11,485 bases of DNA from a virus. Shown here one piece after another: positions 9,002-10,807 of the stretch. The notes under the pieces are model-generated. The model was not told the origin of the DNA. It saw only the letters and a list, made by a program, of their open reading frames with translations, and did not search any database. The DNA is taken from IMG/VR virus record IMGVR_UViG_3300044941_000346; one strand, given 5' to 3'. Made by a program: the position numbers and the translations under genes. Positions within the stretch are counted from its first letter, which is position 1. Every line of letters begins with the position of its first letter.

Positions 9002-9855
9002 CTCTCGTCATCCACCCACACCGCAAGCTCTGGTCGCTGCGCATACAGATGCTCAAGCGCCGCGCGCACGGAGCGCTCACGCACCTCCAGCCCCGTCAGC
9101 CTGACCTCGCGCAGCGTCGGCAGCTGCTTGGGCGCCGCGCTCAACCACTCCAGGCGCACCCGGTTCCCACTTATATTTAAAGTCTCAATGCTCTCCATGC
9201 GATCCGTGAGCATCGCGTGAATCGATAGATCATTGTCGCTGATGTTAAGGTGTTTGATATGACTCATTGCGCCAGCTTTATTTATATGGACAGCATAGAC
9301 TGTGCTCAGCCCACAGCGTCGCAGGCTTATCCGAGCCAGCTTTGTCGCATCTGCGGGGAGCATCGCCCAGACACCTCGACCACCAAGTGGATTGTGATCA
9401 AGTGTCAAGGATTCGAGAACAGACCAGCTCAGATGACGCCCCAAGATCGCTCCTGCTTCCTCGCCTAAATCACACTCCGACAACATCACATGTGTGAGCG
9501 GCCCCATATCGGGGTTGCTTAATACTACCAAGAGTCCGTGATCGCCGAGCGGGCCGCGGTGGTGGAGGTGGCGGGCTAGCCGCCACAGCCTGCACCGCTC
9601 GCCGCGCAGCGTGGCCCGCATCCAAGCCGCCGGGTTGACGCGCATGGCGTCAGGCCAGGCTTTGAGGTGCTCCTCGGCGTAGGGGATGAGCATCTCCCAC
9701 AGGTAGTCATCATGCGCTGCGGGTGCCAGCACCGCGCAGATCTCGGCCCAGACAAGCGGGCAGGGCGGGCGGTGCAGCAGGCTGCGCAGCTCGGAGAGGC
9801 GCCACTCGGGCGAATCACGATGGGTTTTGGGTGAGGGAGACGGCATCAAGCTCAC
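8989..9855 (-). CDS. Leucine-rich-repeat protein, paralogue P4 (288 aa), with the same N-terminal module
   Basis: The N-terminal module is WRLSELRSLLHRPPCPLVWAEICAVL...LIPYAEEHLKAWPDAMRVNPAAWM. LRR units include LESLTLDHNPLGGRG, IKHLNISDNDLS, IETLNISGNRV and LREVRLTGLEV. The tail is VWVDDERWEP. The start is GTG 9855 (a GTGA overlap with the upstream stop 9854-9852) or ATG 9846. The gene contains a ~41% GC patch at 9171-9300. Confidence 0.8.
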   Translation of the reverse strand: MSLMPSPSPKTHRDSPEWRLSELRSLLHRPPCPLVWAEICAVLAPAAHDDYLWEMLIPYAEEHLKAWPDAMRVNPAAWMRATLRGERCRLWRLARHLHHRGPLGDHGLLVVLSNPDMGPLTHVMLSECDLGEEAGAILGRHLSWSVLESLTLDHNPLGGRGVWAMLPADATKLARISLRRCGLSTVYAVHINKAGAMSHIKHLNISDNDLSIHAMLTDRMESIETLNISGNRVRLEWLSAAPKQLPTLREVRLTGLEVRERSVRAALEHLYAQRPELAVWVDDERWEP

Positions 9856-10573
9856 AGGTCGTCGTCGTAGGGCTCCTCAAGCTCGATCATAGCCTCGTTG
9901 GCGCTGCTCAACAACTCCAGCCGCGCGTTGCAGCCGACGGGGTTGGGCGACAGGCTCAACTGCTCCATCCGTTTGAGCCACACGCACGCCGCGAGCGCAT
10001 AGGCGCCGCGCGAGTTTATGGGGTTGCGCTCAAGCTCGATCGCGGTCTGCGCCGCAAGCCGTAGGCCCGTCACCAGCAGCTCCAGCCCCTCGTCATAGAG
10101 CGCGCAGCTGTGGAGCGACAGGTTGGTCAAGGCGCGCTCGACGCCGCGCGGCGCCTATGCGGTTGTGGCTCAGGTTGGGCGAGACAAGCCGCGTCAGGTG
10201 CGGGCACTGGACGCTGGCGTGCGGATGCCCTTGTCGCTGACCGAGGACCTGTAGCGCATGACGCGCACCAGCACAAGGGACGCCCCCGGATGGCGTGCTT
10301 GATCCAATCCGGGGGCGCGACGCGCAGCGCGTCAGGCCATGTGTCCAGCGCACGCTTGAGGTAGGGCAGGGCCCTCTCGGTGAACAGATCTGGTCGCTCT
10401 GGTTGCGCCTGGTAGGCGTCGATCGCGCGTCCCAGCGCATTCCAGCGCGCCGCGTCGGGCTGGCCGTGCGCAACGCCGCAGAATTCCCCATACCAAGTTG
10501 TCTTGATTGACCTTCTTTTTGCGCTACAAAATGCGTGTTCGGTGTGGTCGGTAAAAGGCTGAGCCAAAGGCAA
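9852..10573 (-). pseudogene. Decayed LRR paralogue P3: homologous to P4/P5 but readable only by switching among all three minus-strand frames
   Basis: Track ORF 10127..10573 carries the N-terminal module (WYGEFCGVAHGQPDAARWNAL...ERALPYLKRALDTWPDALRVAPPDWIKHAIRG). Homology then continues in another frame (LVLVRVMRYRSSVSDKG, compare P5 RRLRVHVQLTDRD). It continues next in ORF 10093..10491 (HPHASVQCPHLTRLVSPNLSHNRIGAA), then in ORF 9852..10130 (LTNLSLHSCALYDEGLELLV...IELERNPINSRGAYALAA...LSLSPNPVG, tail LEEPYDDDL). Frame changes fall at about 10283-10287 (a C5 run), 10225-10232 and 10143-10155. There is no ATG start; the track start at 10573 is TTG inside AT-rich DNA. Confidence 0.55.
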
Positions 10574-10670
10574 TGAGGCAGAATGAAGGAAGCTTGGTAT
10601 TATTTGTTATCTTATCTCCTCGTTTTATCGTGGTCTTTGTTATGTGTTAAAGTGACGGTTTAAGCGTGGC
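10491..10670. other. AT-rich (~42% GC) segment, largely without convincing coding potential, between the P2 fragment and the decayed paralogue P3; likely a recombination/insertion scar and/or an internal promoter region
   Basis: Hand count gives 76 G+C in 180 nt, against about 75% in flanking coding DNA. The segment contains the direct repeat tttgttat (10602-10609 and 10636-10643). On the minus strand it carries a sigma70-like pair, TTAACA (10650-10645), 17 nt, TAAAAC (10627-10622). No convincing ORF starts here. Confidence 0.5.
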
Positions 10671-10807
10671 CGCTCACTCCACCAAGTCGTAGAACGTGCC
10701 AAACTCGATCTCCAGAGCGCCTTCCACGCCTCGGCGCTGGACGGCTGCTCCAGCGCGCTGCGCAGCTCACCGAACCGCGCGCTGTGATCACTCACCGACT
10801 TCGACAT
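10640..10807 (-). pseudogene. N-terminal fragment of an LRR paralogue (P2), truncated at the AT-rich segment
   Basis: The ATG at 10807-10805 gives MSKSVSDHSARFGELRSALEQPSSAEAWKAL..., which matches the first ~30 residues of the shared N-terminal module. This includes the DNA word ctgcgcagctc (plus strand), also present at 8955-8965 and 9782-9792 and here at 10758-10768. After AWKAL the reading frame loses similarity and stops at 10640 (or at 10675 in the alternative frame). No LRR part follows. Confidence 0.4.

Follow-up and report, generated by a model that had tools for sequence, protein, structure and literature searches.

In the 11,485-nt stretch of DNA analysed here (IMG/VR record IMGVR_UViG_3300044941_000346; hereafter the window), the upstream end of a tandem array of LRR genes is very probably degenerating: P3 would be a young pseudogene, the orphan ORF before it a two-gene deletion scar and the DNA between them a low-GC replacement, with P4, P5 and the enzyme genes intact. 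On the minus strand throughout, the order is STM4015, scar, low-GC piece, P3 pseudogene, P4, P5, STM4014-HAD, STM4013, STM4012, STM4011 and an MVP-like gene (Table 1). The array between STM4015 and STM4014 thereby adjoins the uncharacterised enzyme cluster STM4014-STM4011, whose products are two radical-SAM proteins, a sulfatase-like hydrolase and a RimK-like ATP-grasp/HAD fusion.

The STM4015 gene starts beyond the window end. On the full contig (L081, 2583-3512) it encodes 309 aa and ends in ...DDDDDYWYVEVGE*, with the canonical C-terminal motif common to all relatives. Gene calls confirmed the exact ATGA junctions reported for the neighbouring genes by the initial annotation, namely at P4/P5 and at P5/STM4014. 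Given that gene callers disagree on the P4 start, an exact look-up of the 288-aa product returned no match; its orthologue in L082, L087 and L088 shows 41% identity. A low-GC block is also present within P4.

Table 1. Features of the LRR array and its upstream end (window positions)
Feature	Position	Strand	Basis or remark
P5, intact N-module LRR gene, 419-422 aa	7733..9001	-	gene calls; predicted structure
P4, intact N-module LRR gene	8989..9855	-	288 aa from GTG 9855, or 285 aa from ATG 9846
P3 segment 4, last three LRRs and acidic tail (...IELEEPYDDDL*)	9852..10155	-	GC3 0.89
P3 segment 3 (QCPHLTRLVSPNLSHNRIGAA), first LRR, third frame	10156..10217	-	HMM, GC3, frameshift-aware alignment
P3 segment 2 (LVLVRVMRYRSSVSDKGIRT), second frame	10218..10273	-	aligns to LALARVVRYSASLSDKGMRT of the P3 orthologue; GC3 phase 0
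P3 segment 1, N-terminal helical module from codon 9 (YGEFCGVAHGQ...WIKHAIRGRP)	10274..10492	-	HMM E 1.5e-12; GC3 phase 2
Low-GC piece, ~170 nt, 40% GC	10493..10663	-	composition
GATAAAACGAGGAGATAAGA in low-GC piece	10610..10629	-	matches Shine-Dalgarno spacer of second STM4015 copy in L089/L090/L091
Promoter-like pair TTAACA-17-TAAAAC	10622..10650	-	present in sequence
Retained 10-nt spacer gcggccacgc	10664..10673	-	comparison with L088
3' remnant, last 12-13 codons (EIEFGTFYDLVE) and TGA (10676-10674), '275-aa type'	10674..10712	-	GC3 phase 0 from ~10720
5' remnant, ~35 codons (MTTGMSKSVSDHSARFGELRSALEQPSSAEAWKAL), N-module LRR gene of '329-aa type'	10713..10819	-	GC3 phase 2 over 10810-10720
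STM4015-family gene, 3' two-thirds	10788..11456	-	NF038076 E 1e-67 on partial product

The orphan ORF and the low-GC piece

The orphan ORF between STM4015 and P3 had been described as preserving the start of the family module, and similarity to P5 (E 5e-4) and to the N-terminus of a 329-aa protein of the related contig L089 (E 3e-9) agrees with this. Its probable start is ATG 10819 (MTTG...), which overlaps the end of STM4015, and not 10807. On comparison with relatives, the ORF reads as a composite, formed at an out-of-frame deletion junction of two genes. The 5' remnant finds its best match in residues 9-32 of the L089 329-aa protein (62% identity, E 3e-9) and also matches the N-termini of P5 and of the L082 408-aa protein. 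The 3' remnant, in a different frame, matches the extreme C-termini of the L089 275-aa protein (EFSSFHDLME*) and of the gene preceding P3 in L088 (FYDLME*), its parent being the gene that precedes P3 in the relatives; at the DNA level it also forms a 72% repeat with the P3 tail. The two remnants meet at a deletion junction placed at ~10722-10712. In L088 only 10 nt (ccacaccacg, the counterpart of the retained spacer) separate the upstream stop from the ATG of the P3 orthologue (P3o).

Two other readings of this region were rejected. Collinearity of the orphan with the tail of the L088 upstream gene plus one 1-nt deletion fails because N-module N-termini fit the first part better (62% vs 26-37%), and the L088 upstream ORF is not an STM4015 with a C-terminal extension, since all close STM4015 proteins end in ...YWYVE[VL]GE.

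The low-GC DNA noted by the initial annotation is indeed the lowest stretch of the 16.6-kb contig (40.2% GC over 10495-10663 against 64%). It does not directly follow the orphan module as had been proposed, however: a native tail, a stop and the 10-nt spacer lie between, so that the deletion (~10715) and the low-GC piece are taken as two events. The piece occupies the site where L088 carries the P3o ATG and first 8 codons. It showed no Rfam match, no stable fold (z 0.28) and no terminator or promoter call in a scan. The match of GATAAAACGAGGAGATAAGA to a ribosome-binding spacer has an exact core of 15/15, its score was reached by none of 60 shuffles and, with ≤2 mismatches allowed, 1.5 Mb of loci contained no other match; in the window it is not followed by a start codon. 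On the basis of this match, part of the low-GC piece may come from elsewhere in such an array. Two further origins were tried and discarded, namely a diverged duplicate of the P3 5' end ('FCLIAFG' vs 'FCGVAHG'), for which the alignment score equals the shuffle mean, and a decayed STM4015 or LRR coding fragment, for which there was no significant similarity at the protein level.

We infer the following sequence of events, deletion size and entry of the low-GC DNA by illegitimate recombination. A deletion would have begun at ~codon 35 of the N-module LRR gene that first follows STM4015 and stopped ~13 codons short of the 3' end of the P3-preceding gene, fusing the two gene ends out of frame. The loss would be ~1.7 kb if the locus was as in L089, where the matching 329-aa and 275-aa genes are adjacent and the corresponding interval is ~1.7 kb. 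The ~170 nt of 40% GC DNA would have replaced the P3 start and first 8 codons and thereby removed translation initiation; P3 would then, or also, have been hit by small deletions that broke its frame and would have lost about four LRRs, yielding three frame changes in 150 nt. Given that the guide relatives are distant (69% identity for STM4014, 59% for the P3 N-module), the ancestral array content and the true deletion size can only be inferred.

AT-rich DNA in GC-rich genomes often has promoter activity, and the low-GC piece could conceivably, though this is unlikely, act as a promoter within the operon and maintain transcription of P4, P5 and the enzyme genes downstream of ~0.9 kb of DNA that is not translated, a gap that would otherwise pose a polarity risk. 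The pair TTAACA-17-TAAAAC is indeed present, but the initial annotation's description of it as sigma70-like did not hold: of the conserved A2/T6 of the -10 element the invariant final T is lacking, the sigma-70 scan made no call and 25% of shuffles gave an equal match, which places the pair at chance level. Moreover, the organism is probably myxobacterial and the sigma-70 promoter rules may not apply to it. The retention of coupling signals, proposed from the overlap of the P3 stop with the P4 GTG, is likewise uncertain, with P4 called from ATG 9846 in a second assembly (Logan) and a relative having a 31-nt spacer at this junction.

Less probable again is a mobile-element origin, in which the piece would be what is left of a MITE or IS end that destroyed the P3 start on inserting or excising and may also have brought about the neighbouring deletion. 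Its composition is foreign to the contig, both Logan contigs terminate within it and a 111-nt stretch (10490-10600) is flanked by 19-nt imperfect inverted repeats, ATACCAAG...CTTGGTAT, the inner end abutting the first P3 codon. However, these repeats pair at 15/19 (79% complementary), a chance-level size given 32 such pairs in 1.3 kb, and no target-site duplication was found by sequence inspection or among the listed repeats. The mobile-element copies envisaged by the initial annotation did not appear either: the 19.5-kb contig and 1.5 Mb of loci contained no further copy, and plasmid, phage, viral-contig and metagenome-contig searches returned none. Four exact-word scans of viral contigs and one of metagenome contigs gave a single match, to the metagenome contig L093, which is ascribed to chance as a bare 20-mer without extension. 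Furthermore, the piece partly matches an array spacer and not a transposon.

The N-module LRR family and its relatives

Proteins of the N-module family consist of an ~85-aa helical cap (FGELRS..W..LPY..WP..RVAP..W), RI-type LRRs and an acidic/aromatic tail. The module occurs in 1,028 representative clusters, with LRRs also present in all ten scanned, and has neither a Pfam model nor a sequence relative in the PDB. The predicted structure of P5 (pLDDT 85) is an RI-like horseshoe of ~11 LRRs with an N-terminal helical cap, and the top Foldseek matches are ribonuclease inhibitor, NLRP LRR domains and RipG4. Hence P5 is similar by predicted fold to ribonuclease-inhibitor/GALA-type LRR proteins (PDB 2bex, 1a4y, 9j7j RipG4, 4xa9 LegL1), and P3o matches GALA LRRs by sequence; the array proteins differ from these by the extra ~85-residue N-terminal helical module.

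The locus has the STM4011-STM4015 neighbourhood, the array lying between a bona fide STM4015 and STM4014-STM4011, and STM4015 itself is often found in 2-6 tandem copies in other genomes. The LRR part of P3o and P5 weakly matches the LRR region of the STM4015 profile, but P3, P4 and P5 differ from that family by the N-terminal module, by scores of 20-62 bits and by lacking the ...RYVAVSE C-terminus. Against NF038076 (NCBIfam; curated cut-off 275 bits) P3o reaches 62 bits, P5 44.5 bits and P4 gives no match, all under the cut-off; true STM4015 genes of the clade score only 228-256 bits, being partial or just below it. The C-terminal ...[WY]RYVAV[SAG]E, present in nearly all listed STM4015 homologues, is absent in P3 (YDDDL), P4 (RWEP) and P5 (PWWMA). 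The literature on STM4011-4015 yielded only incidental mentions, and PADLOC defence models gave no relevant match.

In order to place the array, related metagenome contigs were compared. L087 and L088 share the downstream neighbours of P3, namely the orthologues of P4 and P5 and STM4014, and L089 has the upstream Omp85-SUI1 synteny in common with the window but carries at least eight array genes, against one gene and the scar here. Copy number varies as well, with 408- and 413-aa tandem copies in L082 and the 413 alone in L087 and L088. Identity to the relatives is 69-76% for enzyme genes and 41-51% for LRR genes. A genome-collection scan with STM4014 returned distant loci only (≤47% identity), in none of which an array lies between STM4015 and STM4014; one of them (L006) carries a single unrelated N-module ORF on the opposite strand. 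A metagenome-contig scan with a P4 alignment gave no match.

Comparable behaviour is documented for tandem LRR clusters of plant NLR/RGA genes (PMC3017797) and for the LRR and F-box expansions of Parachlamydiaceae (PMC4209131), in which the copy number of tandem paralogues likewise varies between close lineages and, as here, products of unequal recombination, truncated remnants and frameshifted pseudogenes lie beside intact copies. The present case differs as a bacterial operonic array with overlapping stop/start codons, a fixed enzyme set and no NB-ARC or F-box. The LRR genes between STM4015 and STM4014 might even be fast-turnover partners or substrates of STM4011-STM4014, subject to cassette exchange, loss and diversifying selection, which we consider somewhat less likely than a mobile-element origin of the low-GC piece. 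If so, the scar, the pseudogene, the P4 low-GC block and the low-GC piece would be footprints of exchange in an immune-receptor-like locus and not of neutral decay, and the low-GC piece with its relic ribosome-binding spacer might also drive expression of the surviving genes.

P3 and the nature of its lesions

The lesions of P3 and their coordinates can be read directly from the window. Homology over 9852-10492 is spread across three reading frames and is readable only with three frame changes. With P5 and P4 as queries, tblastn recovered 10492-10274 (E 7e-9) and 10130-9903 (E 2e-5) in different frames, and the family HMM recovered the same split. Independently of homology, the GC3 frame plot runs in phase 2 over 10495-10290, phase 0 over 10290-10225, phase 1 over 10225-10150 and phase 0 over 10150-9852. 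A frameshift-aware alignment to the intact orthologue places the changes near 10273-10285, 10213-10217 and 10155. The four approaches thus agree with the three frame changes in ~150 nt claimed by the initial annotation, the alignment placing them within ~10-15 nt of the positions given there.

In L088, P3o is one intact ORF of 338 aa, of which aa 9-125 and 245-337 align to 10492-9855. Segment 1 shows 56% identity to aa 9-82 (E 3e-25; 59% for the N-module in a separate comparison) and segment 4, which includes a 92-codon ORF (9852-10130), 38% to aa 245-337 (E 4e-15). Entry into segment 2 is an out-of-frame deletion with ~3 codons also gone (APW in P3o), and the junction at ~10155-10130 skips P3o residues ~126-243, that is ~115 aa or about four LRRs; at least two of the three changes are hence tied to multi-nucleotide deletions and not to homopolymer slips. 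The start codon and first 8 codons are missing, neither a start codon nor a ribosome-binding site was found for the N-module segment, and the ~4 remaining repeats sit in frames other than that of the N-module. From this combination of homology and lesions, P3 appears to be a former member of the N-module LRR family and now a non-functional pseudogene. Given that GC3 is still 0.85-0.95 and that no in-frame stops remain after frame correction, it would be evolutionarily young. The four-LRR difference could instead reflect expansion in the relatives. A word-indexed protein search with the frame-corrected P3 gave no match.

In the 92-codon 3' ORF GC3 is high, and its 38% identity to the orthologue is comparable to that of the P4 C-terminal part to its own orthologue (28%); a residual role of this ORF may exist.

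The comparison with orthologous loci advised by the initial annotation did not find the three-frame arrangement conserved: P3o is uninterrupted in L088, and the partial copy in L087 (last 155 aa) keeps a single frame across the positions matching the frameshift sites. Of the proposed decay after duplication, the decay stands, but P3 is no fresh duplicate; it has long belonged to the array and has an orthologue of its own. The same comparison makes it highly improbable that the arrangement is functional, either through programmed frameshifting of P3 or with the orphan (61 codons) and the ORFs of 148, 132 and 92 codons as separate small genes. GC3 does stay high in each segment and the stop of the 92-codon ORF is next to the start of P4, but a frame change used for recoding would be conserved in orthologues, the N-module segment lacks a start codon and a ribosome-binding site, none of the long ORFs follows its native frame over its whole length, and three shifts in 150 nt with a deleted LRR block seem unlike any recoding site.

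The lesions were reproduced by a second assembler (Logan, run SRR35364710, contigs L085 and L095; contigs seen in 2 samples), although this run and the JGI sample may derive from one library and all three assemblies represent one population (100% identity). There were no mismatches to the window over 10518-5971, all three frameshift sites included, and 100% identity from upstream of STM4015 to 10576, which takes in the scar; both ends of the low-GC piece are also identical, and 10519-10575 comes from the JGI assembly only. Even less credible than recoding is a sequencing or assembly artefact, in which the frameshifts and the low-GC piece would stem from indel errors or a chimeric join. The contig does come from a metagenome, a G5 run (10283-10287) adjoins one of the frame changes and the Logan contigs break in the low-GC piece, but identical sequence from a different assembler makes an artefact very unlikely, ~10 kb of flanking genes are intact, and neither multi-codon deletions, the missing P3 start nor the four-LRR gap can arise as read errors. 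Together, the second assembly and the intact orthologue in a relative bear out the earlier view that the damage is biological, through decay and illegitimate recombination or insertion.

In light of these results, the degenerating upstream end is ordinary birth-and-death evolution of a tandem array. It is a well-documented pseudogenisation and deletion junction in a bacterial array and matters little beyond correct annotation, in which the 92-, 132-, 148- and 61-codon ORFs should not be annotated as genes. In the STM4011-STM4015 system the accessory LRR genes can be dispensed with and are replaced fast, while the enzyme genes are intact and conserved, and any functional hypothesis for STM4011-STM4015 must accommodate this turnover of LRR genes against conserved enzymes.

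Gene content of the locus

In reverse complement, the window corresponds to a portion of the 19.5-kb JGI metagenome contig Ga0484951_003065 (sample 3300044940), in which the transcription order is STM4015, the region under study, P4, P5, STM4014-HAD, STM4013, STM4012, STM4011 and a major-vault-protein (MVP)-like gene. Although curated as a system, the STM4011-STM4015 neighbourhood is uncharacterised in function, and a search of the literature gave incidental mentions only. Since the best STM4014 match in the genome collection is just 47% (a Polyangiaceae MAG), we only infer a myxobacterial origin for the source organism. 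In the window clade the STM4014 ATP-grasp carries a C-terminal HAD-type phosphatase/nucleotidase domain, and both domains are covered by few of the genome-collection matches listed (four Flammeovirga loci and one MAG). The MVP-like gene adjoins STM4011 downstream on the same strand (MVP_shoulder E 1e-27, Vault_3, weak Band_7). In many actinomycete genomes (L005, L010, L019, L038, L046, L050, L052 and others) 2-6 tandem STM4015 paralogues are observed upstream of STM4014; having the LRR component in several copies is a general trait of the system.

Genes of the locus and segments of the LRR pseudogene P3 aligned with its intact orthologue P3o
Feature	Coordinates	Strand	Alignment
STM4015-family gene, 309 aa on full contig	10788 to past window end	minus	
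Region under study	9852-10825	minus	
P4, 288 aa	8989-9855	minus	
P5, 422 aa	7733-9001	minus	
STM4014 ATP-grasp fused to HAD hydrolase	5913-7745	minus	
STM4013 hydrolase	5096-5929	minus	
STM4012 radical-SAM protein	3702-5228	minus	
STM4011 radical-SAM protein	2830-3756	minus	
MVP-like gene, 826 aa	131-2611	minus	
P3, first frame	10492-10262		P3o aa 9-82, 56% identity, E 3e-25
P3, next frame, LVLVRVMRYRSSVSDKGIRT			P3o LALARVVRYSASLSDKGMRT, alignment carries on
P3, third frame, PHLTRLVSPNLSHNRIG			P3o first LRR, alignment carries on
P3, last segment	10130-9855		P3o aa 245-337, 38% identity, E 4e-15

Decay of P3

The initial annotation had described a decayed copy of P4/P5, and its three frame changes were recovered essentially where it had placed them, with tblastn, a family HMM and a GC3 frame plot in agreement. 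On tblastn against 9700-10950, P5 and P4 hit three stretches: 10492-10274 with the N-terminal module (E 7e-9), 10130-9903 with the LRR part and in a different frame (E 2e-5), and 10798-10715, where the match is to the short beginning of the module (E 5e-4). The HMM splits P3 identically and adds a weak third-frame LRR match at 10200-10084. The frame plot, which is evidence independent of homology, displays a coding phase going from 2 to 0, 1 and 0 again with switches at ~10290, ~10225 and ~10150, and a third-position GC of 0.85-0.95 in every segment.

A protein 100% identical to P5 gave access to further contigs. L085, which the Logan project built from run SRR35364710 with a different assembler and which occurs in two samples, has 100% identity to window 10518-5971, all three frameshift sites included. 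A second Logan contig, L095, shows the same agreement over a stretch that begins upstream of STM4015, takes in its stop and the short orphan ORF and reaches 10576 inside the low-GC DNA. A further JGI contig, taken from a different sample, has a single difference in 5,150 positions and stops short of P3. With second-assembler contigs identical over all frameshift sites and the deletion scar, the damage is very probably biological, as had been proposed, rather than sequence error, and the lesions of P3 are unlike those made by sequencing errors. Both Logan contigs break within the low-GC piece preceding P3 (~10493-10663), L095 ending at 10576 and L085 starting at 10518, so that 57 nt (10519-10575) rest on the JGI assembly alone; poor AT-rich coverage, a graph branch or polymorphism could account for this break.

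The downstream genes recur in relatives that come from a set of further JGI samples (STM4014 69%, STM4013 76% identity). In L088 the order is the tail of an upstream gene, 10 nt, the 338-aa P3o, a 292-aa ORF orthologous to P4 (41% identity), a 413-aa ORF orthologous to P5 (51%) and STM4014, while L087 holds the last 155 aa of P3o in a single frame. Since relatives keep P3o as one ORF and not the three-frame arrangement, there is no support for recoding or for small genes read separately. Compared to P3o, P3 is devoid of the ATG and first 8 codons, its second frame is entered through an out-of-frame deletion with three codons also lost, the second frame change falls after GIRT, and the third lies at a junction omitting P3o residues ~126-243, about four 27-residue LRRs. 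Frame-corrected P3 shows no in-frame stops and an undiminished GC3; hence the pseudogene is young.

The low-GC piece and the orphan ORF

The low-GC segment noticed in the initial annotation is real: 10495-10663 has 40.2% GC, the lowest stretch on a 64% GC contig. It spans from exactly the expected place of the P3o ATG to the first conserved P3 codon, so that ~170 nt replace ~34 nt. No Rfam match, stable fold (z 0.28) or target-site duplication was seen, and a 19-nt imperfect inverted repeat bounding 10490-10600 is within chance expectation. Second copies of the piece, a search for which had been advised, were found neither on the contig nor in 1.5 Mb of fetched loci, and plasmids, phages, viral and metagenome contigs gave nothing beyond one chance 20-mer. 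Paralogue 5' ends show no significant DNA similarity to it and array proteins no protein-level similarity. However, GATAAAACGAGGAGATAAGA (10629-10610) matches the Shine-Dalgarno spacer between a 389-aa LRR gene and a second STM4015 copy in L089, L090 and L091, with a core of 15/15 exact, a score attained by 0/60 shuffles and no other match with ≤2 mismatches across all fetched loci; in the window no start codon follows it. Given this spacer match, array DNA, and not a transposon, may be the source of at least part of the piece. An internal promoter had also been suggested. The TTAACA-17-TAAAAC pair is present at 10650-10622, but its -10 box lacks the conserved last T, 25% of shuffles equal it and a promoter/terminator scan called neither. 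The promoter suggestion and that of retained coupling at the decayed copy are both unsupported.

The orphan ORF keeps the start of the family module, as had been noted, but does not run directly into low-GC DNA: its later part is the C-terminal tail, stop and spacer of a second gene. On the GC3 plot the coding phase changes inside it at ~10720. Upstream, MTTGMSKSVSDHSARFGELRSALEQPSSAEAWKAL has its ATG at 10819, overlapping the STM4015 end; its best match lies in a 329-aa N-module LRR protein of L089 (residues 9-32, 62% identity, E 3e-9). Downstream, in the STM4015 frame, it reads ...EIEFGTFYDLVE before TGA 10676-10674, best matching the extreme C-terminus of the neighbouring 275-aa L089 protein (EFSSFHDLME*) and that of the gene directly preceding P3o in L088 (FYDLME*); past the stop come 10 nt, gcggccacgc, that are similar to the spacer of L088, ccacaccacg. 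Upstream, L089 and the window contig have the Omp85-SUI1 synteny in common. The L089 array runs STM4015, then 389-, 314- (second STM4015), 329-, 275-, 336- and 363-aa genes and more beyond, where the window has one STM4015 and the scar. In L092, the closest STM4015 relative (68% identity), an N-module LRR gene begins 6 nt past the STM4015 stop.

The simplest account of these matches is that the orphan ORF would be the junction of a deletion spanning two genes, which would have left ~35 codons at the start of the first LRR gene and ~13 at the end of the one in front of P3. Its size would be ~1.7 kb for an ancestor similar to the adjacent 329/275 pair. Collinearity with the L088 tail through a 1-nt deletion was dropped, the N-terminal match to the 329-aa type being much stronger. 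The L088 upstream ORF was also considered as an extended STM4015 and dropped, as all close STM4015 proteins end in ...YWYVE[VL]GE.

The LRR family and turnover of its array

At E ≤ 1e-3 the ~85-residue N-module turns up in 1,028 representative protein clusters, and LRRs follow it in 10/10 members scanned; no Pfam model covers it and it has no PDB sequence relative. The AlphaFold2 model of P5 (pLDDT 85, pTM 0.85) predicts a four-helix N-terminal cap, ~11 LRRs, a long C-terminal helix and a disordered tail, with ribonuclease inhibitor, NLRP LRR domains and the GALA protein RipG4 as best Foldseek matches. N-module LRR proteins match the LRR part of the STM4015 profile weakly (20-62 bits vs a cut-off of 275) and therefore represent a distinct family accompanying the system in the window clade. 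In the 80 genome loci that were retrieved by STM4014, no N-module lies between STM4015 and STM4014. Known defence-system models gave no match. A distant protein, P0157, has N-module and LRRs fused to a DUF72 domain; a DUF72 gene lies downstream of the MVP-like gene on the window's contig (L081 15107-15961).

Nearly all STM4015-family C-termini listed display an acidic run, then [WY]RYVAV[SAG]E and the stop (window 10788-10830; loci L001-L080; L089), and N-module LRR paralogues end acidic/aromatic as well (YYDDDDWE, FHDLME, YDDDL, DPDDPWWMA). Given that STM4014 next door is a RimK-like ATP-grasp, these tails may, as an idea only, serve for recognition or be modified.

The composition of P4 is mosaic: the LRR block at its centre (9180-9540, codons ~106-225) has GC3 0.43-0.60 and GC 0.42-0.59, against GC3 0.8-0.9 in flanks and neighbours, and it is this block that is poorly conserved between P4 and its orthologue (28% vs 62% identity). 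These values suggest that an intact gene contains a lower-GC cassette which was recombined or imported. Among relatives, L082 (1012-3547) holds tandem 408- and 413-aa P5-type genes where L087/L088 hold only the 413-aa gene, L083 has repeated 408-aa copies, and in P0068 an N-half from STM4015 copy 2 is joined to a C-half from copy 1, which makes it either a recombinant or an assembly chimera. The complementary processes are thus seen in relatives, namely P5-type duplication and a possible STM4015 recombinant.

With the frame shifts, intact orthologue, scar and low-GC replacement, the description and main interpretation first offered, gene decay plus recombination or insertion, hold. By locus comparison, the region bears the marks of lineage-specific loss in a fast-evolving tandem LRR array: a probable two-gene deletion junction, low-GC DNA replacing the P3 start and a young, multiply disabled P3 pseudogene. 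Such changes are ordinary birth-and-death evolution. The surrounding uncharacterised system is more interesting than the decay itself.
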